In this document: positions 7,311-31,987 of the stretch, piece by piece | How the letters are laid out: each line of letters starts with the position of its first letter | Numbering within the stretch: position 1 is the first letter of the stretch | IMG/VR virus record: IMGVR_UViG_3300045988_155672 | Coordinates: 1 to 31,987 of that record | Length of the DNA: 31,987 bases | Strand: one strand, 5' to 3' | DNA from: a virus | Program-made: the position numbers and the translations under genes | Notes under the pieces: generated by a model | Seen by the model: only the letters and a program-made list of their open reading frames with translations | Told to the model about the DNA's origin: nothing | Databases searched by the model: none

Positions 7311-7693
7311 TGGGATTGATAAATAGAAAAGAATTACAATCTAACGCACGTAAAGTTAATAGAAGTAAAAACGGTTCACCTGAATACCAACTACAATGTA
7401 AATGCGTACAATGGTTCAGAAGCAACTATCCTGAATACCTCATCTTCCAAGTACCTAATGAAGCAACCCATAAGAATGGTGAAAAATTCCATAATAGCGG
7501 TACACTAAACGGCGTATCAGATTTAATAATCGTTAAAGATAAACAAATCCTCTTTATTGAGATGAAGTCTGAAAAAGGTGTACAGAGAAGAGAACAATCC
7601 GAATTTGAATATAAGGTAAAAGAACTCGGGTTTGATTATTATATAGTAAGAGATTTTGAAACGTTTAAGAAAATAATTTGTAGTGAACCATGA
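7310..7693 (+). CDS. VRR-NUC domain nuclease
   Basis: GVSDLIIVKDKQILFIEMKSEKGVQRREQSEFEYKVKELGFDYYIV fits the VRR-NUC PD-(D/E)xK pattern (D...ExK...Q). Its start overlaps the upstream stop (TAATG). Confidence 0.8.
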   Translation: MGLINRKELQSNARKVNRSKNGSPEYQLQCKCVQWFRSNYPEYLIFQVPNEATHKNGEKFHNSGTLNGVSDLIIVKDKQILFIEMKSEKGVQRREQSEFEYKVKELGFDYYIVRDFETFKKIICSEP

Positions 7694-7715
7694 AAAGGCA
7701 TATATGACTTCGTTG
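7689..7715 (+). promoter_or_regulatory. promoter-like motif, copy 2 of 6
   Basis: CATGAAAAGGCATATATGACTTCGTTG. It overlaps the VRR-NUC stop codon and ends 9 nt before ATG 7725. Confidence 0.5.
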
Positions 7716-7724
7716 CTATAGAAC

Positions 7725-8537
7725 ATGTCTAACAAAAATGTATTAGTAGGAGAGGCGAAGAATAGTAGCCAACCTACGCAGGAAGTTAAAATTTTTAGTA
7801 GTGAAAAATTCGGTGAGATTAGAACAATGGGTGATACAACTAACCCACTCTTTTGCTTACCCGATGTATGTAGAGCATTATCTGTTGATATAAGTAATGT
7901 TAGAGAAAAGGTAAGAAAGGGGTGGTGCATTAAACACCCCCTTCAGACTAACGGTGGAATCCAAGAAACAACCTTTGTTAATGAATCAGTTTTATATGAT
8001 ATAATTTTCAGTTCGAGAAAAGCTGAAGCTGTTGAGTTCAGGCATTGGGTTACTGATGAAGTTCTACCTATGATTAGAAAGACGGGTGCATATTTAACTA
8101 AAAATACAGCAGAGGCATTAGCAAGTGGAGATATAACAGCTCAGAGAGAATTTATTAAAATGTACTTAACAACTCTTGATGATTTAGAAAAGAAAAATCA
8201 GATGCTACAACAAGCCACTACTAAGATTGAAGAGGATAAACCAAAAGTAGAGTTCCACGATGCTGTACACGATTCAACTAATTTAATGAGTATTCAGGAT
8301 TTTGGTAAGGCTGTTAGTATTGGTGAGAAAACATTATTTAGTGCATTGAGAGATATGGGTATTTTTTATTATGACAAAAGAACTAATCTCCCTTATCAAG
8401 AATATATAAATAGTGGATATTTCAAAGTAATTGAAGGTACGTATAAAAATAAAAGGACAGGGGAAACTATGACATATTTAACTACCAAGATAACAGGTAA
8501 GGGACAGACGTGGTTAACTGATAAATTAAATAAGTAA
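7725..8537 (+). CDS. Bro-N / KilAC (ANT-type) antirepressor-like protein
   Basis: The N-terminus (FGEIRTMGDTTNPLFCLPDVCRALSV ... FRHWVTDEVLPMIRKTGAY) fits Bro-N. The C-terminus (FHDAVHDSTNLMSIQDFGKAV ... NLPYQEYINSGYFKV ... ITGKGQTWL) fits the KilAC/ANT C-terminal domain. Confidence 0.85.
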   Translation: MSNKNVLVGEAKNSSQPTQEVKIFSSEKFGEIRTMGDTTNPLFCLPDVCRALSVDISNVREKVRKGWCIKHPLQTNGGIQETTFVNESVLYDIIFSSRKAEAVEFRHWVTDEVLPMIRKTGAYLTKNTAEALASGDITAQREFIKMYLTTLDDLEKKNQMLQQATTKIEEDKPKVEFHDAVHDSTNLMSIQDFGKAVSIGEKTLFSALRDMGIFYYDKRTNLPYQEYINSGYFKVIEGTYKNKRTGETMTYLTTKITGKGQTWLTDKLNK

Positions 8538-8579: not shown

Positions 8580-9620
8580 TTAATAGTTCTCAGTAGTCCA
8601 ACCTGAAGTAGGAAGTCCACTATTACCTACTGGAATTGTTAATTTAGCAGGTTTACGCATAACTCCCGTTGAAGCTACACCATATACCCAACCATTAAAT
8701 GTATAAGTATTCCACGTGGTTATGTTAGGGGTAGTTACTAAATTAAGAGAAGAGCAATTTTGATAACTATAATAGAATGCTTCAGTACCAACACTTGTAA
8801 CATTAGAGAAATCAGGTGCTGTTGTTAATTTTGTACAACCTTGTAAAAAATGAGCAAAACCATGATCACCAACACTTGTAACATTAGAGAAGTCAGGTGT
8901 AGTAGTTAAAGAAGAACAACCTTCAAGAACATGAGCAAATCCACTACTACCAACTGTTGTAACATTAGAGAAGTCAGGTATTTTTTCTAAAAGGGTACAA
9001 TTCTGAAAGAGTCCAAGAAATCCACCAGCGCCAACAGTTATTAAATTAGGGATACTAATGCGACTAAAAATTAATGAAGTACAACCATAGAAAGAATTAT
9101 AGAATGAATTTCTACCAACTTCTGTAACCCCTTTCATGGTAAAACTACAAGTAGCTATACTACCCCTATTTTTAAACCATTCATAAAAAGCGTAATCAGG
9201 GATTTTAGTAACTGAATTAACGTCTTGATGATTTATCAGTGTTCTAATATCTCCTACTATATTATTCGTAGTACCACTTATATAGAACGAAAAATGTACA
9301 CCATCTCTAAACCTAACATCTGTATTTACTCCCCTTAAGTAAATTATACCACCTGAGGGAATAGTTACAGTAGGTCTTTTACCCGTATCATACTTATTCC
9401 ATGTTTTCTTATCTAAGGAGTACTCGAGGTTAATTTCAGAGTTCATATAATCAGTTGCATAGAATCTACATGCGTCCAATCCATCATTAGAAATATTAAA
9501 ATAATAAGGTTCACTTGCTTTTTTCTCCCACAGCACCTTACCTGCACTATTCGTTATTTTAGTTACTGCTTTACTTCCCAATTTAACCTCAGTAACTTTT
9601 GAAAAATCTATACTACTCAT
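8580..9620 (-). CDS. BspA-type leucine-rich-repeat protein, receptor-binding candidate (paralogue 3, inverted orientation)
   Basis: Repeated (G)CxxLxxxPDFSNVTxVG units. The N-terminal NLEYSLDKKTWNKYD...IYLRGVN and GDIRTLINHQDVNSVTKIPDYAF segments and the C-terminal RKPAKLTIP...GWTTENY are shared with 29422..30405. Confidence 0.7.
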   Translation of the reverse strand: MSSIDFSKVTEVKLGSKAVTKITNSAGKVLWEKKASEPYYFNISNDGLDACRFYATDYMNSEINLEYSLDKKTWNKYDTGKRPTVTIPSGGIIYLRGVNTDVRFRDGVHFSFYISGTTNNIVGDIRTLINHQDVNSVTKIPDYAFYEWFKNRGSIATCSFTMKGVTEVGRNSFYNSFYGCTSLIFSRISIPNLITVGAGGFLGLFQNCTLLEKIPDFSNVTTVGSSGFAHVLEGCSSLTTTPDFSNVTSVGDHGFAHFLQGCTKLTTAPDFSNVTSVGTEAFYYSYQNCSSLNLVTTPNITTWNTYTFNGWVYGVASTGVMRKPAKLTIPVGNSGLPTSGWTTENY

Positions 9621-10621: not shown

Positions 10622-10892
10622 TGAAGAGTATGAGATATTAAAGAAGTATGACAGGCACTTTACCACAGCGATAGAGGGGCAGTATATATATAACATGTCC
10701 CCAAGTGAAGCAACCATATTATTCGATGTGTATAATAAAGTGTTTTGTAAATTTGAAAAGAATTTATATTGCATGAGTTGTAGGTTAAGGATTACGCAAT
10801 TATTAGGAAAACTTTATTTTGAGAGGAAGGAGGTAGAAGATAATGGCAGGAAGAAAGGTCGTAAGAAATCGAAAGTTAAAAAAGAAGCCTAA
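10605..10892 (+). CDS. hypothetical protein
   Basis: 95 aa ORF with overlapping starts and stops relative to its neighbours, and a basic C-terminal tail. Confidence 0.35.
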   Translation: MRELTNEEYEILKKYDRHFTTAIEGQYIYNMSPSEATILFDVYNKVFCKFEKNLYCMSCRLRITQLLGKLYFERKEVEDNGRKKGRKKSKVKKEA

Positions 10893-11238
10893 GAATTATG
10901 AGGAGATAATACAGAGGGGGATTGAGTTATATTCCAAGGGGTATTCCAATTCTTATGTACGTTCTCAGATATATAAGGAATTTAACTTTAAGTATTGCTA
11001 TTTTGATACGTTAAGAAAAGACATTGTTAAACAGATAGAAAAGGAGAGTGATGCTTTAGGTAGTGTTACAAGGGAGTTAAATTTAACAAGGCTTAATTCT
11101 TTATTGAATGATGCGATAGAGCAAGGGGATACTCAGATGTCGTTAAAGATTATCCAAGAGATAAACAAGATGACGAACCAATATGAGGACAAGACAGAGG
11201 TAAAGGTTGATAATACAATAACGTTTAAAATAAATTAA
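10843..11238 (+). CDS. putative small terminase subunit
   Basis: 131 aa with a basic N-terminus and a helical DNA-binding-like segment, immediately upstream of the large terminase. The call is positional. Confidence 0.4.
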   Translation: MAGRKVVRNRKLKKKPKNYEEIIQRGIELYSKGYSNSYVRSQIYKEFNFKYCYFDTLRKDIVKQIEKESDALGSVTRELNLTRLNSLLNDAIEQGDTQMSLKIIQEINKMTNQYEDKTEVKVDNTITFKIN

Positions 11239-11245
11239 AAAATCT

Positions 11246-12484
11246 ATGGGAGTAGTTGTAGAGGGACATAAGTTATATCCATGGCAGAGGGCTGTTATAG
11301 ATTGTTATGATAAGCACCCCAAGAACTCCATAATAGTTGTTAAATCAGCGAGACAGAGGGGCAAGACGGATATGTTGTTAAATCTTCTTATGAGGGAGAC
11401 AATCAATCATGAGAGGTTCAGAGCAATTATAATTTGTCCCTCTTTTCAAATATCGAGGAAACAATATAAGGAGGTTGCAGATAATTTAAATAAGATACCG
11501 AATTTAGTTAAATCAGCTAATGGTTCGCACTTGGAGATTGAATTATATAATAAGAGTATGATTAAATTCAAGTCAGCAGAATCTAAAAATAACCTAAGAG
11601 GTGAGACGGCTGAATTGTTAATATTCGATGAGGGGGCTTTTATTAGTTTGGAGACAGCCTTGGAGTGCTTTAACTACACCAATACAACCAATGGGAACAT
11701 TATCATAACATCAACGCCCACATTCAAGGACGAAGAAAATCTGTTTTATAAATATTATCACGCAGCGGAGTTAAACGAACCTAATGTTTATTTAATAGAT
11801 TTTTGCGAATATGATACCTCAGCCCTTATGCCCATTGAGAAGATGGAGATGTATAAGAAAACCTTACCACATAAGATTTACTGTAATGAGATATTGGGAG
11901 ATTTTTTAACGGAGAGCAGTACAGTATTCGGTGATTTTTCAAAAGTGTTAAGGAATGATGTGATTCCTGATAATAATAACGTAATGGGAATTGACTTTTC
12001 GAGTGGTACTAATAATGATGAGACAGCTATAACTTGTTTTAACAGTAAAAAAGGAATGTTTTATCTGAACCACTTCAATGACAAGGATACCCTACAAACG
12101 ATAGAAGTTATAATAAATGTCATTAAAGAATATAATATAAAAAAGTGTACAGTGGAGTTAAACAGTATGGGTAAAACGTACAGGGATTTATTGGCAAGAG
12201 AGATTAGTGTTCAAGGTCTTAAATGTCAGATATTAGATTTTAACACCACCAACAGTTCCAAGAGAGACATAATTGATAGCTTAAACTTAAATATACAAAA
12301 TAGAACGTGTACCTTATTAAATGAACAAACCTTAAAATTACAGATGGCTTCATTCGAGGTTAAAACAACTAAGACGGGTTTATTAACATACGGCAATAGC
12401 AGCGATAGAATACATGATGATATAGTGATGTCGATTGCTCTGGCGTTAAATAGTTTTAAGAGTGGTAGTTATGCGTTTAGATAA
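11246..12484 (+). CDS. terL: terminase large subunit
   Basis: Walker A-like VVKSARQRGKT, Walker B-like LLIFDEGAF, an ITSTP coupling motif, and C-terminal RNaseH-like nuclease acidic residues (GIDFS...DETAI...HDDIVMS). Confidence 0.9.
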   Translation: MGVVVEGHKLYPWQRAVIDCYDKHPKNSIIVVKSARQRGKTDMLLNLLMRETINHERFRAIIICPSFQISRKQYKEVADNLNKIPNLVKSANGSHLEIELYNKSMIKFKSAESKNNLRGETAELLIFDEGAFISLETALECFNYTNTTNGNIIITSTPTFKDEENLFYKYYHAAELNEPNVYLIDFCEYDTSALMPIEKMEMYKKTLPHKIYCNEILGDFLTESSTVFGDFSKVLRNDVIPDNNNVMGIDFSSGTNNDETAITCFNSKKGMFYLNHFNDKDTLQTIEVIINVIKEYNIKKCTVELNSMGKTYRDLLAREISVQGLKCQILDFNTTNSSKRDIIDSLNLNIQNRTCTLLNEQTLKLQMASFEVKTTKTGLLTYGNSSDRIHDDIVMSIALALNSFKSGSYAFR

Positions 12485-18097: not shown

Positions 18098-18124
18098 TAT
18101 GAAAGTGAGAATAAAACTTCGTTG
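18098..18124 (+). promoter_or_regulatory. promoter-like motif, copy 3 of 6
   Basis: TATGAAAGTGAGAATAAAACTTCGTTG, 81 nt upstream of ATG 18206. Confidence 0.45.
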
Positions 18125-18710: not shown

Positions 18711-19028
18711 ATGGAACAAGAAAAGTTAACAGAATTAAGAAACAAAGCATTCCAATCTAAAACAAAACAAGAATGGGATGTTGTAATGAATGAAATTAAA
18801 ACCCTAACTGAAAATGATGAATCAGCAAGGGAGTATTTAAGAAAATATTGTACTACTCTATTGGAAAAGAAAAAAGTCTATTGGGAGAAGTATCAACAAC
18901 AGTCAAATAAACCTAAATACACATCAGTTAAAAACTCATTCATTTTCCAAGATGAACTAGCTCACGCATTAGCTGAATATATAAAAGTTAAAACTGAGTT
19001 ACTCAAAAAAGAAAAGAATTTATTATAG
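18711..19028 (+). CDS. hypothetical helical protein
   Basis: 105 aa, charged and helical, followed by a terminator. Confidence 0.4.
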   Translation: MEQEKLTELRNKAFQSKTKQEWDVVMNEIKTLTENDESAREYLRKYCTTLLEKKKVYWEKYQQQSNKPKYTSVKNSFIFQDELAHALAEYIKVKTELLKKEKNLL

Positions 19029-19050
19029 CTCATTTATTATTATTATTATT

Positions 19051-19087
19051 GAGAGGTAGTGTTCACAGCATTGCCTCTCTTTTTTTA
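19051..19087 (+). terminator. rho-independent terminator
   Basis: GAGAGG (19051-19056) pairs with CCTCTC (19074-19079), followed by T7. Confidence 0.6.
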
Positions 19088-19130
19088 TCCCTCCCTCAAA
19101 AGTTAATTACAGTTAAAAACAAAACCACTT

Positions 19131-19157
19131 CATGAAAACACGTATATCTCTTCGTTG
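19131..19157 (+). promoter_or_regulatory. promoter-like motif, copy 4 of 6
   Basis: CATGAAAACACGTATATCTCTTCGTTG, 39 nt upstream of ATG 19197. Confidence 0.5.
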
Positions 19158-19196
19158 CAATGACTGTAAAAGTAAAAAAGATAAAAAATAACAAAT

Positions 19197-19844
19197 ATGT
19201 CAAAGTTTATAATAACACGCAATTTGAACGGATATAAGTTGCAACAGAGAACTGATAATGGAATGTTTAACGCTTCATACTTCATAGAACAATGGAATGA
19301 GAAGAATAACTCCAATCTGAAGGTAAGTGATTTTATTAAAGAAAAAGACACTCTACGCTTCATGAATATATTAGCTGTTAAAGAAAACCTAAATCACGTT
19401 GGAGAATGTTTTAATGATGGTATAATAGCTGTTAATAATACCGTAACTAATGATGAGGGTATTATTCATACAGAGATTTGGTTTCATCGCTACCTCTTCT
19501 CAGATTTTTTAATATACGTAAATGAAGAGTTAAAATATGAAGCATTGAAGTTCATCACCGATAACTTAATTGATATGAGAAACACCGTAGGCTCTAAATA
19601 CAGAGAATGGGTAAATCTACTCACTACCATTGGAGCTAATCAAACAGATATTAAAACTATTCAATGTAATATAAATATCATCGTATTCGGTAAACATGAA
19701 AAGGATATTAGAAACTCAGCTACATTTGAAGAGTTAACTAAAATACTAGAAATCCAATCAACACTCTCATCACTCATTAAATTAAACATAGCTACCACTC
19801 CAATGGAAGTTTTATCTCATCTTGTTAACCTCTTTAGAAAATAA
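19197..19844 (+). CDS. KilA-N domain protein, paralogue 2 (diverged)
   Basis: YKLQQRTDNGMFNASYFIEQWN ... IWFHRYLFSDFLIYVNEELKYEALKFITDNLIDMR ... IIVFGKHEKDIRNSATFEEL is colinear with the other two paralogues. Confidence 0.65.
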   Translation: MSKFIITRNLNGYKLQQRTDNGMFNASYFIEQWNEKNNSNLKVSDFIKEKDTLRFMNILAVKENLNHVGECFNDGIIAVNNTVTNDEGIIHTEIWFHRYLFSDFLIYVNEELKYEALKFITDNLIDMRNTVGSKYREWVNLLTTIGANQTDIKTIQCNINIIVFGKHEKDIRNSATFEELTKILEIQSTLSSLIKLNIATTPMEVLSHLVNLFRK

Positions 19845-20299
19845 AGTGAAAATTATGAAAAATAACATTAAATTTTTTCTCGGTCAGTATCAACAAGTTA
19901 AGAAAAATTCATTAAAATTCCTCACTTTCATATCCACTTTTTTCAAAAAAAGGCTCTCTTATTCTATAGGAACTATGTCCTATTATAGTTCATTGGAATA
20001 TTCTCATCGAATATCCCAATTCCAATAAGCGGACAATCGTTCAAGTATTTTCTTAGAAACTGTTTAAATAGCGGTTCATTACATTCACCTTGTTACTCAG
20101 TTCTAAAGAACTTCATAAAAACAAAAGAACTTAACGAAAATGAAAAGTACTCATCGTACTCTTCATTCTTCTTATAAGTCCTTCAGTTTACTAAAGAATC
20201 TAAAACAGTTAAAAATACTCAAGTCAATACCTGAAAATACTTCTAAGGTATAAGTAAGGTAAGGATAATTGTACCCTTTTGAATCGGGTGTTTTTTCTT

Positions 20300-20720
20300 T
20301 TCATTTTGAGATTTTTCAAGTTTGGTAGTAGTTGAGAAGTTACTTCAGTTTTCATTGGTAGTAGTTAGTAGATTCGATTCTTCAGTTTGGTAGTTAGTTT
20401 TCTTGAGTTGGTAGGTTAGTAGAGTAGTTTAGTTAATTCCAAGTTAAGTAAATTCACTAGTAGATTCTCAAGTTTACTAGTAGTTTCCTTATTTCCATGT
20501 GTAGAGTAGTTTTAAGAGGTTTAGAGAGGTTTTAACAGTTCATAGGTAGAATTAGTTCAGTGAGGTAGTAAAGTCTTACCAGAGGAGAAATAAACGTACT
20601 TCCAAGGTAGTTAATTCTAGTAGGTAGTTTGGGAGGTAGTAAAGTACTTGTAATTCCATGTGTAGTTAATTAGGTAAGAGACTCGTTTTAACATTCCATA
20701 GTTAAGTAAATTCCAAAAAG
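20300..20720. repeat. C-depleted, G/T-skewed non-coding tract with degenerate GGTAG-type direct repeats
   Basis: Nine exact GGTAG at 20324, 20357, 20389, 20410, 20545, 20564, 20606, 20623 and 20635. Longer repeat pairs are listed in the finding for 20030-20914. No ORF of 60 aa or more is listed on either strand between 20029 and 20913. Confidence 0.8.
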
Positions 20721-20914
20721 TGTAAACGTAAGTTAATGTCGAAGACACTCCATAAACGAAGTGATAATACAATATACTTCCGCTGCGTAATTTTTACATA
20801 CTTAATAGGGTAAACAGTTGAAAATGAGTAATTCCTAAAATTGAGGAGATGGGTGAGTAGCGAAATGCGACGATGCTCTGAATTGTTAACTTTTCAAAAA
20901 TGATACTACTTATT

Positions 20915-20941
20915 CATGAAACTACCAATAAAACTTCGTTG
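20915..20941 (+). promoter_or_regulatory. promoter-like motif, copy 5 of 6
   Basis: CATGAAACTACCAATAAAACTTCGTTG, ending 9 nt before ATG 20951. Confidence 0.5.
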
Positions 20942-20950
20942 TAGTAGTAT

Positions 20951-21265
20951 ATGAACAAAGAAAATTCAATAATAGCGGAGGCGAATAATAGTAACCAAGC
21001 TATGCAGATTTTTAATAATGAGAAATTTGGTGAGATTAGAACATTAGGTGATGGAAACAATCCACTCTTTTGTTTACCTGACGTATGTAGAGCATTATCT
21101 GTTGATATAAGTAATGTTAGAGAAAAGGTAAGAAAGGGGTGGTGCATTAAACACCCCCTTCAGACTAACGGTGGAATCCAAGAAACAACCTTTGTTAATG
21201 AATCAGTTTTATATGATATAATTTTCAGTTCGAGAAAAGCTGAAGCTGTTGAGTTCAGGCATTGA
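20951..21265 (+). pseudogene. truncated Bro-N domain gene (104 codons), possibly still expressed as a stand-alone Bro-N protein
   Basis: Homologous to the N-terminus of 7725..8537. Nt 21083-21264 are identical to 7866-8047. Identity ends exactly at a TGA, where the full-length copy continues WVTDEVLPMIRKTGAY. Confidence 0.6.
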
Positions 21266-21540
21266 ATCTACCGAATGGTGAGTTAGGTATATTAAATGTT
21301 TACAAATGGTTTAGAGATAATAATTTTACGATGAAAAATAACCTACCATACGAAATTCAAAGACGTAAGGGGCTTATGACAGTTAGGTTGGGTAAAGATA
21401 AGTACGGTAGATTAACAAAAACAGCTGTAATAACTGAAAAAGGAGTTAAGTACTACCATGATTTAATAGTGAATAGTCTTAATTGGATAAAAAAGAATTT
21501 ACTCAGCAATCTTCGGAGGAAACTGAGCTTGAGACTCTAA
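21262..21540 (+). CDS. KilAC-like C-terminal fragment ORF (-1 frame relative to the truncated Bro-N)
   Basis: FRDNNFTMKNNLPYEIQRRKGLMTVRLGKDKYGRLTKTAVITEKGVKYY parallels LRDMGIFYYDKRTNLPYQEYINSGYFKV...KITGKGQTWL of 7725..8537. It starts at TTG 21262 or ATG 21331. Confidence 0.4.
   Translation: MNLPNGELGILNVYKWFRDNNFTMKNNLPYEIQRRKGLMTVRLGKDKYGRLTKTAVITEKGVKYYHDLIVNSLNWIKKNLLSNLRRKLSLRL
21489..21495 (+). other. A_AAA_AAG heptamer in the zero frame of ORF 21262..21540
   Basis: Codons are ATA AAA AAG (21487-21495). A -1 shift enters the frame of ORF 21483..21776 (KKEFTQQSSEETE followed by LETLISNR repeats). Confidence 0.45.
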
Positions 21541-21736
21541 TAAGTAACAGGCTTGAGACTCTAATAAGTAACAGGCTTGAGACTCTAATAAGTAACAGGC
21601 TTGAGACTCTAATAAGTAACAGGCTTGAGACTCTAATAAGTAACAGGCTTGAGACTCTAATAAGTAACAGGCTTGAGACTCTAATAAGTAACGGGCTTGA
21701 GACTCTAATAAGTAACAGGCTTGAGACTCTAATAAA
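21528..21736. repeat. 24-bp tandem repeat, about 8.7 copies, nearly perfect
   Basis: Unit CTTGAGACTCTAATAAGTAACAGG. There is one A>G substitution in copy 7 (AACGGG). One frame is open on each strand (LETLISNR on +, RVSSLLLI on -). Confidence 0.95.
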
Positions 21737-21783
21737 AAAGATTTTGGTAGAATATTTATTAAAGGATTTAAAATAATTGAGAG

Positions 21784-22392
21784 ATGGAATTAAACGTAAA
21801 AAAACAAAAAGTGTTTGAGTTGTTGGGTAGAGAAGAAAATCAAAACCTATCAACAGAAGAATGGTTAAATAAGTTAAATGGTGAAGGTCTTAATGTAAGC
21901 CGAGGAACCTTTTTCAGATACAAAAAAGAATTTACTCAACTTCAATCTTCGGGTGAGTTAAAATTTGAAAACGGCGATTCCTGCAAATTACAACATATAG
22001 CTAAAGTGCTACATGTCGAAAATCGAGTAGTTAAAGAAGAAGCCCCAACACCAAAAGAAAAAGAGATTGATATATGGAAGCACATTGATGAAGTAGATAA
22101 ACGAGAAGAGGTCCCAATATCAAAAGAAGAAGATGATGTGGAGATAGATTTTAGTGGAAGTGATTTAACAGATGATGAGAGGGAAGAGTTAAACATATTA
22201 TTAGATGGATTTAAGACTTGTAGGAGTGTATTTGAAGCTATGGAGTGTTGCAGGCAATTAGACATGTTTGTACAGAATAAAAAGAAAAAGATAGGTAAAT
22301 ATGTTAAAGAAAAAGTATCTACCTTATACGAATGGCAGAAGTTGTTTTTTACCAACTATGGGTTAGATAAGAGAATTTGTTTTGAGGAATAA
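21784..22392 (+). CDS. HTH-containing protein with an acidic centre (function unknown)
   Basis: The N-terminus (LSTEEWLNKLNGEGLNVSRGTFFRYKKEF) looks like a small HTH. The middle is acidic and the C-terminus is Cys-containing. The gene lies immediately downstream of the tandem array. Confidence 0.45.
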   Translation: MELNVKKQKVFELLGREENQNLSTEEWLNKLNGEGLNVSRGTFFRYKKEFTQLQSSGELKFENGDSCKLQHIAKVLHVENRVVKEEAPTPKEKEIDIWKHIDEVDKREEVPISKEEDDVEIDFSGSDLTDDEREELNILLDGFKTCRSVFEAMECCRQLDMFVQNKKKKIGKYVKEKVSTLYEWQKLFFTNYGLDKRICFEE

Positions 22393-22437
22393 AAAAAATA
22401 AATTAGCTACTATATATAATAGGTAATAAATAGCACG

Positions 22438-22863
22438 ATGAAACTAACGAAGAATTTTACATTAGAGGAATTAATGTGGAGTGATACAGCTAATAGACTC
22501 CACATTAACAACACCCCATCAAAAGAGGTAGTAAATAAATTAAAAAAATTAGCAACGGATATTCTACAACCTATAAGAGACACATACGGACTACCAATTA
22601 AAATAAGTTCAGGATATAGATGTTCAGAATTAAATAAAAAGATTGGTGGAGTAAGAAACAGTCAGCATGTGTTAGGAGAAGCTGCTGATTTAGTTGTCGG
22701 TGATGTGGTACAAAATTTAGAACTCTTTAATCTAATAAAAACGATGATTGAGCATGGAGAGATAACTGTGGGGCAACTAATCAATGAATACGGAGGTAAA
22801 TGGGTACACGTATCATTACCAAGAACAAATAAAAAAAATAATCAAATAATAAACATATATTAA
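22438..22863 (+). CDS. endolysin, peptidase M15 (zinc D-Ala-D-Ala carboxypeptidase / L-Ala-D-Glu peptidase family)
   Basis: FTLEEL...ISSGYRCSELNKKIGGVRNSQHVLGEAADL...WVHVS contains the H..D...H zinc-ligand pattern typical of M15 phage lysins. Confidence 0.85.
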   Translation: MKLTKNFTLEELMWSDTANRLHINNTPSKEVVNKLKKLATDILQPIRDTYGLPIKISSGYRCSELNKKIGGVRNSQHVLGEAADLVVGDVVQNLELFNLIKTMIEHGEITVGQLINEYGGKWVHVSLPRTNKKNNQIINIY

Positions 22864-25314: not shown

Positions 25315-25341
25315 CATGAAAACACATAGAAGACTTCGTTG
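25315..25341 (+). promoter_or_regulatory. promoter-like motif, copy 6 of 6
   Basis: CATGAAAACACATAGAAGACTTCGTTG. The whole terminator-plus-motif module 25274-25345 is colinear with 2481-2555. Confidence 0.5.
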
Positions 25342-29421: not shown

Positions 29422-30405
29422 ATGATTAAAAGTTATTATAAAGTTTATAGGGTGTTTCCTGACCCTGAATATGTATGGGTGAAGAATGAGAAGACAAGTG
29501 TTGTTCAGTTTAGTACAACTAATTATATGAACTCTCCAATTAACCTTGAGTACTCATTAGATAAAACAACATGGAACAACTACGATATGAGTAATAAGCC
29601 TACTGTAATAGTTCCTGCAGGTGGTTACATTTACTTAAGAGGTGTTAATACAGGGGTTACGTTTAATAGTGATTTACATTTTGGATTTAGTTTTGAAGAC
29701 TTCGGAATTAGTCAACCCTTTTCAACAGGTGGGGATATTAGAACACTGTTAAATTACCAAGACGTTAATTCGGTTACTAAAATCCCTGATTACGCTTTTT
29801 ATGACGTTTTTAGAAGTGGTGGTAATATAACTTCTTGTACTTGGGATATGAGTGGAATTACAGAAGTTGGTGCTAATGGATTCGATAGTTGTTTCGACGG
29901 TTGTAGTAATTTAACAACTGCACCTGACTTCTCTAATGTTACAAGTATTGGTGCTAAAGGATTCAATGCTTGTTTCAACGGTTGTAGTAATTTAACAACT
30001 ACACCTGACTTCTCTAATGTTACAAGTATTGAGTATGCTTCATTTAACTACTGTTTCACTCAATGTTCTTCCTTAACAATTCCACCTGACTTCTCTAAGA
30101 TTACAGGAGCTAAGTTTACTTCATTTAATAGTTGTTTCTATAAATGTATTAAATTAACTACTGCACCTGACTTCTCTAATATTACGAGTCTTGAGGGTGG
30201 AAGTACCTTCCTTAGCTGTTTCAAAGGTTGTTCTTCCCTTAACTTAGTAACTGCACCTAATATAACAACGTGGGATAATAATTATTTTACTGATTGGTTA
30301 GTTAACGTTGCTTCATCAGGAGTAGTACGTAAACCTGCTAAATTAACAATTCCAACAGATAGTACGAGTGGTGTTCCTACGGGTTGGACAACTGAGAACT
30401 ATTAA
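29422..30405 (+). CDS. BspA-type LRR protein, receptor-binding candidate (paralogue 2)
   Basis: Four to five FxxCFxGCSxLTTxPDFSN(V/I)TS units. It contains an 81-bp tandem duplication: 29899-29949 and 29980-30030 differ at one base. Confidence 0.7.
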   Translation: MIKSYYKVYRVFPDPEYVWVKNEKTSVVQFSTTNYMNSPINLEYSLDKTTWNNYDMSNKPTVIVPAGGYIYLRGVNTGVTFNSDLHFGFSFEDFGISQPFSTGGDIRTLLNYQDVNSVTKIPDYAFYDVFRSGGNITSCTWDMSGITEVGANGFDSCFDGCSNLTTAPDFSNVTSIGAKGFNACFNGCSNLTTTPDFSNVTSIEYASFNYCFTQCSSLTIPPDFSKITGAKFTSFNSCFYKCIKLTTAPDFSNITSLEGGSTFLSCFKGCSSLNLVTAPNITTWDNNYFTDWLVNVASSGVVRKPAKLTIPTDSTSGVPTGWTTENY

Positions 30406-30433
30406 AAAATTTAAGAGGTTATTATTTGATGAG

Positions 30434-30465
30434 AGCTACTTCTGAATAAGGGGTAGCTTTTTTTA
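30434..30465 (+). terminator. rho-independent terminator
   Basis: AGCTAC pairs with GTAGCT, followed by T8. Confidence 0.5.
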
Positions 30466-30510
30466 TAACTATTTTATTATAAATAACATAAATAAAAAAA
30501 ATATAAGATA

Positions 30511-31987
30511 ATGGTAGAATATAAAAGGATTAAATTAAGGAGAGACATAACCACTAATTGGTATGAAGCTAACCCTGTGTTATTAGAGGGAGAGTTAGGT
30601 TATGATAGTACTAAAAAACAATTTAAGATAGGTGATGGAGTTAGTGAGTGGAGAAAATTAACTTATATAACGGTAAATCAAGAAGCGGTACAAGAAATCC
30701 TAAACACGGGTTACTATACCAAAGAGCAGACGGATAATGTAATAAAAACCGCTTTAACACCTATACAAGAAGAGTTAAAAACTAAGGTTGATAATTCCAC
30801 CTATGAAACAAAAATAAATGAAATAGAGGGACAATTACAAGCTATACCTGACGTTCCAACTAAGGTATCCCAATTAGAAAATGACTCGAAATTTCAAACC
30901 AATACACAGGTAGAGACAACTATTACTACTGAGATAGGTAAATTGGCAACAGTAGCAAAAACGGGTTCATATAACGATTTAACAGATAAACCAACAGCTC
31001 CTGGTGCACCTACTAAGACGAGTGAGTTGGAGAACGATTCGGATTTTCAAAATGGTACTCAGGTTCAAGCAACTGTTACTACTGAGATAAATAAATTAGC
31101 AACGGTAGCAAAGACAGGTTCATACACTGATTTAACAAACAAGCCTACCATACCCACAGTACCAACCAACGTATCTGCTTTTACTAATGATGCTAAATAT
31201 CAAAACGATGAACAGGTACTATCAACTGTTAATTCTGAAGTAACTAAATTAAACATACCTACTAAAACAAGTCAATTAGAAAACGACTCTAATTTTGATA
31301 CTATAACTAATGTTGATAATAAAATAAGTAAAGGGGATACTGCAACGTTAACTTCTGCTAAGGCTTATACAGATGAAAAGGTGGGAGGAATTAAAGTACC
31401 TACCAATGTATCTGAATTAACTAATGACAGTGGATATTTAACAGAAACGAATCTTAAAACAATTAACAATGAATCGATAGTAGGAACAGGTAATATTGAG
31501 ATTAAAGGTGGTGGAGGAAGTTCTAATGATTGGTTCGGTTCGGAAGCAGACTTTAACAAAATCCCGACAGACCAACTAAGTCAAGATACCAATTATTATA
31601 TAGCTGTTAAATTAGATTATGAAAAGGATATAGCTAATAAACCATTCGTAGCTAAAACTGTCTCTCAATTACCTAATACAGCTGATTACATAAATCGTGT
31701 TAAAACAATCAACGGTACTAAGATAACAGGTAGTGGTGATATTAACATAATGAAAATAATAGACAGCTATCAATGGTGGGGAACTCAAGAGGCTTATGAT
31801 GCTTTAACAGATGAACAGAAAAAAGAATACCTTTATTATTATATAGAGGGTAATGGTGGTGGATCAGGTGGAGACATACCAACAAAAGTATCCCAATTAG
31901 AGAATGATGCAAATTACCAAAACGACACCCAAGTACAAACAACTGTTAATACTGCGATAACAAAACTAAGTATTCCAACTAAGACAA
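30511..31987 (+). CDS. long tail fibre protein (5' part; continues at nt 1-290 through the end overlap)
   Basis: My own translation gives MVEYKRIKLRRDITTNWYEANPVLLEGELGYDSTKKQFKIGDGVSEWRKLTYI, followed by many (V/I)PTKxSxLxNDxxxQ repeats. The ORF has no stop before the window end, which explains its absence from the ORF track. Confidence 0.75.
   Translation, partial: MVEYKRIKLRRDITTNWYEANPVLLEGELGYDSTKKQFKIGDGVSEWRKLTYITVNQEAVQEILNTGYYTKEQTDNVIKTALTPIQEELKTKVDNSTYETKINEIEGQLQAIPDVPTKVSQLENDSKFQTNTQVETTITTEIGKLATVAKTGSYNDLTDKPTAPGAPTKTSELENDSDFQNGTQVQATVTTEINKLATVAKTGSYTDLTNKPTIPTVPTNVSAFTNDAKYQNDEQVLSTVNSEVTKLNIPTKTSQLENDSNFDTITNVDNKISKGDTATLTSAKAYTDEKVGGIKVPTNVSELTNDSGYLTETNLKTINNESIVGTGNIEIKGGGGSSNDWFGSEADFNKIPTDQLSQDTNYYIAVKLDYEKDIANKPFVAKTVSQLPNTADYINRVKTINGTKITGSGDINIMKIIDSYQWWGTQEAYDALTDEQKKEYLYYYIEGNGGGSGGDIPTKVSQLENDANYQNDTQVQTTVNTAITKLSIPTKT

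Follow-up and report, generated by a model that had tools for sequence, protein, structure and literature searches.

The window, meaning the whole 31,987-nucleotide stretch analysed here, covers a circular phage genome of 31,951 bp (about 32 kb) that is of gut origin and has nearly all of its genes on one strand. Between the genes for a KilA-N and a Bro-N/ANT protein lies a gene-free unit, 19845-20950, which is the sole large non-coding region of this compact genome. The original prediction had placed an ORF-free tract at 20030-20914; that interval does lack ORFs of at least 60 aa, but the limits of the tract are wider. A second zone that seems free of ORFs, 30405-31987 together with 1-365, in fact holds a tail-fibre ORF of 576 aa running over the window ends. 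This leaves the tract as the only large non-coding region and ruled out the window-end zone as a rival origin. We determined the anatomy of the tract, its conservation, the turnover of its repeats, its hairpins and the positions of a promoter-like motif around it. The tract is built of hairpins, GGTAG repeats in a rapidly changing array, and an ultra-conserved block, arranged as follows.

19131-19157, + strand: upstream copy of the promoter-like motif, before the KilA-N gene in the window
19197-19844, + strand: KilA-N gene, 215 aa, with a weak Pfam KilA-N match
19845-19905, + strand: conserved leader, 93-98% identical between three lineages and conserved also in L005 and L006
19906-19986, + strand: variable linker, 58-84% identical, with a roughly neutral rate
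19987-20296, no strand assigned: block B, hairpin-rich, 96-98% identical in three pairwise comparisons
19992-20020, no strand assigned: hairpin H1, eleven to twelve pairs, apex CTCATCG
20119-20189, no strand assigned: hairpin H2, about 30 pairs, apex CTCATCG
20271-20296, + strand: weak intrinsic-terminator-like hairpin (ACCC/GGGT) and T-run, as read from the sequence
20297-20504, + strand: array C, degenerate units (TTC...GGTAGT, ATTCCAnGGTAGTTAATTC), G/T-rich, C-poor and fast-evolving
20505-20845, + strand: block D, ultra-conserved, 341 nt, 96-98% identical
20846-20885, + strand: hypervariable patch, 72-85% identical, with a different weak hairpin in each lineage
20915-20941, + strand: downstream copy of the motif, 9 nt before the Bro-N start codon and invariant in all lineages, closing the unit

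The predicted absence of coding was confirmed. Hidden coding was rejected because each of the six frames is rich in stop codons and the ORFs below 60 aa are out of frame between lineages. A small ORF overlapping the leader (19845-19905) loses its frame in L002 and in L006, all three substitutions in a 37-aa ORF are non-synonymous, and no protein similarity of the tract was found in any frame. Stop-codon recoding was likewise discarded, as all three stops are common there and code 11 gives a normal reading elsewhere in the genome. Known RNA families were excluded by negative Rfam and tRNA scans: Rfam 15, which includes GOLLD, ROOL and other phage-associated RNAs, gave no match to the tract at E <=1 when the whole window was searched, and the tract searched alone gave only chance-level matches (E 0.6-8) far below gathering scores. 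Complementarity to the phage's own mRNAs was not in excess, and a trans-antisense role against them was set aside. A 24-bp tandem of 8.7 copies at 21527-21735 was considered as iterons and rejected, since it lies in frame within a small ORF (LETLISNR repeats). The same tandem is a hotspot for assembly breaks.

Three phage lineages carry the tract, including one (L026) that is without the upstream KilA-N gene. The carrier sequencing runs are SRR1761712, SRR20784054, SRR31228255, SRR11450247 and ERR4678687. As a neutral reference we used nearby genes, which are 78.5% identical at 707 four-fold degenerate sites. Judged by sequence identity, blocks B (19987-20296) and D (20505-20845), which are 96-98% identical in the three lineages, evolve 5-10 times slower than four-fold sites, and the linker, array and hypervariable patch evolve at about the neutral rate. 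Because of this difference between blocks B and D and the four-fold sites, sequence comparison indicates that the tract is a functional, strongly conserved non-coding element and not junk. Within block D, the GGTAG units and the G/T skew persist in the left part, to about 20660, and the right part (20661-20845) is unskewed and almost invariant in four sequences. On either strand, block D is predicted to have less structure than its shuffles (z +1 to +1.7). Folds of the hypervariable patch (-10.8 to -12.6 kcal/mol) were not significant against shuffles, and a terminator at 20846-20885 was rejected since its hairpins are weak and lineage-specific.

Beyond these lineages the tract was not recognisable. 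A blastn search of 19000-22500 against 50,697 phage records, c2 included, returned no match. No homologue was found in IMG/VR with three DNA patterns and two protein queries or in JGI metagenome contigs with two patterns, and a scan of GTDB genomes gave just remote TerL matches (21-31% identity) and no clue to the host. In distant relatives, whose TerL is 53-60% identical, there are G/T-rich repeat tracts that lack ORFs but show no similarity that can be aligned, and nhmmer and blastn of the tract against these gaps gave chance-level matches only. The relation to these gaps is taken as a lead, since they have nothing in common with the tract beyond composition and enrichment of an ATTCCA(A)G motif.

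The 27-nt promoter-like motif, CATGAAA-N12-CTTCGTTG, occurs six times in the window compared to 0.05 expected by chance, always on the + strand and 9-81 nt upstream of a start codon. The copy that had been predicted at 20915 is present and, together with the copy at 19131, brackets the tract. Judged from position, the 19131 copy is a putative promoter that would drive the KilA-N gene. This gene was found in the window, in L001-L006 and in L025 and is missing from L026, where the motif (8838-8864) runs straight into the leader of the tract, without an intervening ORF. This distribution indicates that the KilA-N gene is an optional cassette between the promoter motif and the tract. An earlier suggestion of a possibly untranscribed core loses weight, because the motif is also located upstream (at 19131, and abutting the tract in L026) and the intervening terminator is weak. 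The arrangement suggests that the tract may be transcribed as a conserved non-coding unit, with a copy of the phage promoter-like motif on either side.

The fold of block B has a z-score of -3.3 on the + strand and -5.7 on the minus strand, with one compensatory change (C-G to G-C, pair 20131/20179) in H2. H1 and H2 have different stems and an identical apex, and the two occurrences of CTCATCG on the + strand (0.47 expected) are these two apices. Each hairpin is the more stable in its minus-strand form: H2 folds at -17 to -19 kcal/mol on the + strand but at -29 to -33 kcal/mol on the minus strand, where four of its four wobble positions are G.U, and the sole non-Watson-Crick position of H1 reads A.C on the + strand but G.U on the minus strand. 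All five wobble positions thus favour the minus strand, and a U-rich run follows H2 on that strand. Such stability is more readily reconciled with an RNA from the minus strand, or with single-stranded DNA, than with a + transcript. The weak hairpin and T-run predicted near 20270-20296 were located at 20271-20296; the stem is invariant and a run of at least six T is kept in the three lineages despite differing neighbouring bases.

The base counts originally given were exact, with 10 C and 32 G in 20311-20440. The 20300-20720 core consists of 41 C, 95 G, 161 T and 124 A; it is C-poor as described, but it is not the genome extreme, as some coding windows have less C. In contrast, the G+T content of the tract (0.63-0.66) is the highest among all 300-420-nt windows (mean 0.485, sd 0.045). 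The G/T skew is limited to 20297-20660, and the strand asymmetry reaches into the spacers between repeats. The nine GGTAG claimed for 20300-20720 are present, compared to ~0.55 expected from local base composition and 41 in the whole window, and neither CTACC nor CTAC occurs in this interval. TAG occurs 32 times in its 421 nt, ~4.6 times the genome rate, and the four longer direct repeats lie where they had been predicted. Spacings between GGTAG copies are irregular (12-135 nt), and no significant periodicity was detected in any lineage. Helical phasing was ruled out, there being no period at 10.5 or 11. Array C is 74-80% identical between lineages with 29-86 gap columns, and its units are gained, lost and homogenised lineage by lineage, the repeats evolving in concert. 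Its composition is nevertheless kept in all lineages (G+T 0.63-0.66, C 0.07-0.10). Because the G/T skew is kept in this fast-evolving array and the neutral linker is skewed oppositely (GC skew -0.33 to -0.55), we conclude that the composition of the array is selected. ToxI-like arrays of Type III toxin-antitoxin systems are made of tandem repeats that are nearly identical and constant in length (about 34-40 nt), with a terminator and then a toxin gene downstream. The units here are degenerate and variable in length and the downstream gene encodes Bro-N, and this candidate was rejected.

No replication protein family was found by PHROGs or Pfam in any ORF, bearing out the original statement that no replication gene is recognisable. 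A host-dependent origin is therefore needed somewhere in the genome, and since the tract is the sole sizeable non-coding region, it is the best place for a cis-acting origin. Of the readings considered, we tentatively favour the one in which the tract is a transcription-dependent replication origin acting in cis, analogous and not homologous to that of lactococcal c2-type phages. In these phages (Ceduovirus), the ori is an ORF-free region between the early promoters PE1 and PE2; it gives a non-coding transcript, PE1-T, that is needed for initiation, and it replicates plasmids without phage proteins; members of one type are >90% conserved in this region, and different types show no similarity (PMC7150918). 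The tract resembles this ori in being an ORF-free region bracketed by two promoter elements of the same direction, putative here from their position, in forming the main non-coding region of a small phage genome and in having no ribosome-binding signal downstream of the first promoter. Conservation is likewise high within the lineage (96-98% for blocks B and D) and absent between lineages or types. In contrast, blastn against the 50,697 phage records gave no homology of the tract with the ori types of c2, bIL67 or 923, and the tract is therefore at most an analogue of the c2 ori, not a member. It also differs in its length of about 1.1 kb, in its setting among genes that all run one way rather than between divergent early and late blocks, and in its host, which probably does not use Shine-Dalgarno sequences. 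The G/T-skewed GGTAG array and the twin hairpins with identical apices are not reported for c2 (PMC7150918).

From this arrangement we infer a path in which host RNA polymerase would initiate at the 19131 motif, acting as a promoter, and transcribe the tract. The transcript would pass the hairpin domain of block B, and part of it would read past the weak terminator at 20271-20296 into the G/U-rich, C-poor and stop-codon-dense array and block D. Rho needs C-rich, G-poor RNA. The composition of the array and block D would keep the RNA untranslated, unstructured and free of both ribosomes and Rho. Transcription, or the transcript itself, might then open or prime the DNA, with the hairpins and GGTAG units as recognition sites for host or phage factors. 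In ColE1 (RNA II/RNA I) and in T4 and mitochondrial R-loop origins, a promoter is followed by a hairpin-rich region and then by a non-template strand with G-over-C skew. The tract has a comparable order of upstream motif, hairpins that can fold on both strands and G-over-C skew. However, its predicted RNA is G/U-rich and not purine-rich, for which reason a stable R-loop is weakly based, and signals for RNase H or primer processing are not recognisable in it.

Several observations argue against an origin. The KilA-N ORF separates the 19131 motif from the tract in the window, block D is without predicted RNA structure, and no initiator gene adjoins the tract. No GC or AT skew switch was seen at the tract, although this test is weak where nearly all genes are on one strand: cumulative GC skew rises almost monotonically, and AT skew shows only a local dip at 20001-20500. 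An AT-rich unwinding element is also absent from the tract, where 60-nt windows have a GC content of 0.20-0.38; all such windows with GC <=0.12 lie outside it. Compared to iteron-type origins (lambda ori, plasmid oriV/oriR), the tract shares direct repeats in one orientation whose copy number varies between relatives, but the repeats are degenerate, 12-135 nt apart and unphased, with neither an AT-rich unwinding element nor an overlapping or adjoining initiator gene. The original proposal of a cis-acting origin is thus favoured by a functional element and the c2 precedent, but not by a skew switch, phasing, an AT-rich stretch or an initiator gene.

A GU-rich non-coding RNA had been named as the alternative, and it is supported about as well as a purely DNA-level landing pad. 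In its main form, the chief rival to the origin, it is possible, if rather unlikely, that the tract gives a trans-acting + strand lncRNA whose C-poor, unstructured tail, rich in GGUAG/UAG, titrates an RNA-binding protein of host or phage, with block B as a stability and processing or terminator module. Sponge RNAs of the CsrB/RsmZ type work by titrating a protein. Like them and CrcZ, the tract has many short motifs on the same strand, motif-preserving turnover and a non-coding context: the lineages carry 9, 11 and 12 GGTAG copies in a single orientation without CTACC, and the units turn over with motif and composition retained. The irregular spacing would be more natural in a sponge than in iterons, the spacers share the strand asymmetry, stop codons are dense in all frames, the promoter-like motif is located upstream (directly so in L026), and the region would be accessible because it is unstructured. 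However, GGUAG/UAG has no known binding protein and no candidate was found, the motifs probably lie outside hairpin loops in an array predicted to be no more structured than shuffled sequence, and the terminator-like hairpin is located between the promoter motif and the array. There is no Rfam family match, the RNA is putative, and the array belongs to a larger composite that also contains ultra-conserved blocks; in particular, a simple motif sponge does not need the 341-nt block D, constrained at nearly every base. A more specific form of this reading, which we regard as unlikely, is a new family of ~1-kb phage lncRNA with a hairpin domain bearing two identical apical loops and a Rho-proof G/U-rich tail whose ~10 GGUAG sites would sequester an RNA-binding protein. 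The phage-host system probably does not use Shine-Dalgarno sequences, and we know of no sponge RNA in systems of this kind.

The array could also be a DNA landing pad for KilA-N, Bro-N/ANT, terminase or a 202-aa winged-helix-like neighbour protein, the single-sequence structure model of which (pLDDT 58) was too poor for use. We consider such a pad, whether controlling the neighbouring Bro gene or early/late transcription or serving in packaging, to be quite unlikely. It would explain an array of same-orientation, concertedly evolving repeats between genes for DNA-binding domains. There is a precedent in BstA-aba, where a KilA-N defence protein has a cognate DNA element, aba, of 63 bp that overlaps the gene start (PMC8585504). 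The likeness extends to a KilA-N gene adjoining a non-coding element with direct repeats, but the KilA-N and Bro proteins have no PADLOC match and the tract persists in L026 without the KilA-N gene; a BstA-aba self-immunity pair was rejected on these grounds. C-depleted spacers are unexpected for double-stranded binding sites, the repeats are unphased, and the hairpins share the apex and not the arms, the reverse of an operator palindrome. A pac site, also raised originally, is unlikely because the TerS and TerL genes (10843-12484) are 8 kb from the tract. Two independent Logan contigs, L005 and L006, end at 20017 in the 3' arm of H1, which could mark a DNA end or recombination junction, but L001, L002, L004, L025 and L026, including two Logan contigs, span this position. 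A physical DNA end at 20017 was considered, but no contig was found starting there.

The minus-strand stability of H1 and H2, with its five of five wobbles and the U-rich run after H2, would be accounted for by an element on that strand, either an antisense RNA ending at H2 or a Rho-dependent and hairpin terminator zone whose C-rich, G-poor, unstructured RNA stops leftward transcription into the structural genes. Minus-strand core RNA would have the composition of a rut site (C 23%, G 10%) and is less structured than shuffled sequence (z +2.2). We nevertheless find this very unlikely, given that there is no minus-strand gene or promoter motif to the right, that all six motifs are on the + strand and that the terminator-like hairpin at 20271-20296 has + strand orientation; moreover, an insulator has no need of 340 nt conserved at nearly every base. 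Non-functional sequence, such as a decaying gene or a slippage-generated minisatellite, would fit the degenerate, length-variable array but is highly improbable for a tract retained in three lineages, with no protein similarity in any frame and with blocks B and D evolving 5-10 times slower than four-fold sites.

Collectively, no replication genes can be recognised in this lineage of uncultivated gut phages, and a single non-coding region is under constraint like that on protein-coding sequence. Should the tract prove to be a transcription-dependent origin, the c2-type mechanism would reach far outside the dairy phages of lactococci, and the origin would be a handle for cloning, copy-number mapping and host finding in this phage group. 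If it instead gives a trans-acting GU-rich RNA, this RNA would represent a new class of regulatory RNA in phages. In both cases, the 27-nt promoter-like motif can be reused for annotating related metagenomic phages, and the contrast of a fast-changing array with barely changing flanks provides a second such feature.

The window is a complete, circularly permuted phage genome. Its ends overlap by 36 nt, so its size is 31,951 bp and the molecule is circular or circularly permuted. The genome has a GC content of 32%, carries nearly all genes on the + strand, uses TAA as stop codon in 32 of 40 genes, and has A/T-rich gene leaders without Shine-Dalgarno sequences. Recognisable phage genes encode TerL, portal, tape measure, an XkdF-type protease, an M15 endolysin, a VRR-NUC nuclease, an encapsulin-like capsid candidate, three KilA-N, two Bro/ANT and BspA-type LRR proteins. 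No replication protein, integrase or repressor family was detected among the genes of the window. Near-identical contigs originate in human gut metagenomes (e.g. a Peruvian sample), and GTDB species genomes, searched for a clue to the host, held no close TerL relative. The two BspA-type LRR genes lie on opposite strands (8580-9620, -; 29422-30405, +), have 81-nt repeats in common and contain ~74% identical segments in inverted orientation (29516-29788 vs 9197-9457); no invertase gene was seen. A second ORF-free zone at the window ends was rejected, as it is a 576-aa tail-fibre-like ORF with 96-nt repeats that crosses the junction (30511-31987 joined to 37-290). This leaves the tract at 19845-20950 as the sole large non-coding region.

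The original prediction described an ORF-free stretch with a C-depleted, G/T-skewed array of degenerate GGTAG repeats, and all of its counts were correct on recount. There are 10 C and 32 G in 20311-20440, and 9 of the window's 41 GGTAG fall in 20300-20720 (~0.55 expected from local composition); these 421 nt contain 32 TAG and lack both CTACC and CTAC. The four longer direct repeats were found where they had been placed. At 0.63-0.66 the G+T fraction of the tract is the highest in the genome (mean 0.485, sd 0.045), with the G/T skew limited to 20297-20660; C-poverty by itself is not unique, as some coding windows equal it. The tract has no ORF of at least 60 aa, the frames of its smaller ORFs are not conserved between lineages, no frame has protein similarity, and a tRNA scan and Rfam search of the tract gave no match. 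A weak Rfam L20_leader match at 19003-19091 (E 0.018, under the gathering score) was rejected as the strong intrinsic terminator 19051-19079 after a 105-aa gene.

Protein look-ups identified three lineages with the tract: a window-type lineage (contigs L001 and L025), an L002-type lineage (also L003 and L004; KilA-N protein 90% identical to the window's) and an L026/L027-type lineage (Bro protein 77-79% identical to that of L002). L026 lacks the KilA-N gene and has an intact tract, which is therefore an independent element. The KilA-N gene itself acts like a cassette (window 19158-19844; L026 8865-8890): at the L026 junction, post-motif …CTTCGTTGCAA directly joins the post-stop leader AGTGAAAA…, with the KilA-N ORF exactly removed. 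Four-fold degenerate sites of ten structural genes (n=707), used as the neutral benchmark, are 78.5% identical for both window-L002 and window-L026. Identities between lineages along the tract are as follows.

19845-19905, leader, 93-98%
19906-19986, linker, 58-84%
19987-20296, block B, 96-98%
20297-20504, array C (the GGTAG repeat array), 74-80% plus 29-86 gap columns
20505-20845, block D, 96-98%
20846-20885, patch, 72-85%
20886-20950, promoter region, 95-98%

The constraint on blocks B and D is that of first and second codon positions. Divergence is similarly low in all three pairwise comparisons, a result that favours purifying selection over a single recent exchange involving two lineages.

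The repeat unit of array C is longer than GGTAG, with forms including TTCAGTTTGGTAGTAGTT and ATTCCA(A/T)nGGTAGTTAATTC. Units are gained, lost and homogenised genome by genome, as with TTCCATGTGTAG, present twice in the window, vs TTCCAATGGTAG, present twice in L002. The three lineages have 9, 11 and 12 GGTAG copies, spaced 12-135 nt apart with no significant period and no 10.5-11-nt phasing. Despite this fast evolution the composition is kept (G+T 0.63-0.66, C 0.07-0.10), and the linker, which evolves just as fast, is skewed in GC the other way; the skew of the array is therefore selected or tied to the unit, not a local mutational bias.

Compared with shuffled sequence, block B is more strongly folded (z -3.3 for the + strand, -5.7 for the - strand) and block D less structured, in each case on both strands. 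Block B contains two hairpins, H1 and H2, and ends in a third structure.

19992-20020, H1, apex CTCATCG
20119-20189, H2, ~30 pairs, apex CTCATCG
20271-20296, +, weak terminator-like hairpin, T-run retained in all lineages with differing flanking bases

H1 and H2 have unlike stems and an identical apex, and these are the only two occurrences of CTCATCG on the + strand (0.47 expected). Unlike arms with a common apex are typical of hairpins that are recognised in single-stranded nucleic acid, not of operator palindromes. The L002 double substitution C20131G + G20179C keeps an H2 pair. The minus strand gives both hairpins greater stability (H2, -29 to -33 kcal/mol vs -17 to -19 on the plus strand), and all five of their wobble positions are G.U there and A.C on the plus strand (one-sided p ~0.03 under an even null). 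This minus-strand preference is a caveat to any + strand RNA model. L005 and L006, two independent Logan contigs that differ in sample and strain and are 83% and 90% identical to the window, stop at one and the same position (20017/20018) inside the H1 3' arm, and five other contigs cross 20017. The shared end may mark a DNA end or nick or a recombination junction, or may be an assembly effect.

The promoter-like motif originally seen at 20915 is a 27-nt element, CATGAAA-N12-CTTCGTTG, with six copies in the window vs 0.05 expected by chance.

2524-2550, +, motif copy
7689-7715, +, motif copy
18098-18124, +, motif copy
19131-19157, +, motif copy upstream of the KilA-N gene and tract
20915-20941, +, motif copy ending the tract
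25315-25341, +, motif copy

All six lie in intergenic spacers, 9-81 nt upstream of the start codons of three KilA-N genes, two Bro genes and one 163-aa ORF. The upstream copy in L026 follows the preceding operon's terminator and adjoins the tract leader with no ORF between. From position alone, we infer that the motif serves as a phage promoter and the tract belongs to a + strand transcription unit. The probable role of the motif is that of a phage-specific promoter or operator (early or moron), and no copy was found in relatives whose TerL is 53-60% identical. Downstream of the tract, the Bro-N/ANT gene (window 20951-21540; L002 11730-12512) is a single 260-aa ORF in L002 and L026; in the window, a probable frameshift divides it into ORFs of 104 and 92 aa. 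Within it, at 21092-21190, the window departs sharply from L001, to which it is otherwise 99.6% identical; together with a paralogous Bro gene at 7689-8107, this suggests gene conversion. A variable-number tandem repeat at 21527-21735 (GCTTGAGACTCTAATAAGTAACAG, 24 bp, x 8.7, 98% identity) lies in frame within a small ORF, where it encodes LETLISNR repeats, directly upstream of a 202-aa winged-helix-like ORF; contigs L001, L004, L025 and L026 break there and L002 has an N-gap.

G/T-rich repeat runs also occur in ORF-free gaps of distant relatives (TerL 53-60% identical), which are mosaic and carry serine recombinases.

L009, 8826-9767, GTTTTGGAGTGA three times, ATTCCAAG enriched
L010, 4004-5358, ~ten AARTGRAGTAGTWA-like units
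L012, 15922-16242, GU-rich stretch, then a strong terminator

None of these gaps has alignable similarity to the tract. In the gaps a structured part comes first (z -3.8 and -2.1), followed by the G/T-rich runs. ATTCCA is ~7x enriched in the L009 gap (4 of 14 copies), which also holds three of four TTCCAAG copies, a modest independent hint of a shared motif.

The original prediction proposed the tract as a cis-acting origin, to be checked by a skew switch. Cumulative GC skew rises near-monotonically, with no switch at the tract; no tract window is unusually AT-rich, no initiator gene lies nearby, and the repeats are irregular, so that the tract does not correspond to an iteron-type origin. The origin of lactococcal c2-type phages fits its anatomy better. 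There, the first two early promoters flank a region free of ORFs, and the upstream one yields a non-coding transcript implicated in initiation; the region supports plasmid replication without phage proteins, and its sequence is conserved (>90%) among origins of one type and differs from type to type (PMC7150918). The tract is likewise ORF-free, bracketed by promoter-like motifs and highly conserved within its group, in a phage without recognisable replication genes. Unlike a member of the c2 family, it has no sequence homology to c2, so the likeness is one of analogy. The origin proposal, recast as a transcription-dependent, c2-like cis-acting type, ranks first among the readings, as a tentative choice.

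The composition of the tract may matter for a transcript. Rho loads on C-rich, G-poor RNA, and untranslated, unstructured transcripts are normally its substrates. The + strand RNA of 20297-20660 would have 21-26% G, 7-10% C and stop codons in every frame, and could thus stay single-stranded while evading Rho and ribosomes alike. A minus-strand RNA would instead be an ideal Rho substrate, and a purely double-stranded-DNA function would leave the C-depletion of the spacers without a reason. Second in rank, and on the unlikely side, the tract may encode a trans-acting GU-rich sponge RNA. Less likely still is a landing pad in the DNA to which phage DNA-binding or packaging proteins would attach. 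A minus-strand antisense RNA or terminator element is improbable. That the tract is junk is scarcely credible. The origin and sponge-RNA readings are not mutually exclusive. The tract element is real and functional, and it fits no described RNA or origin family.
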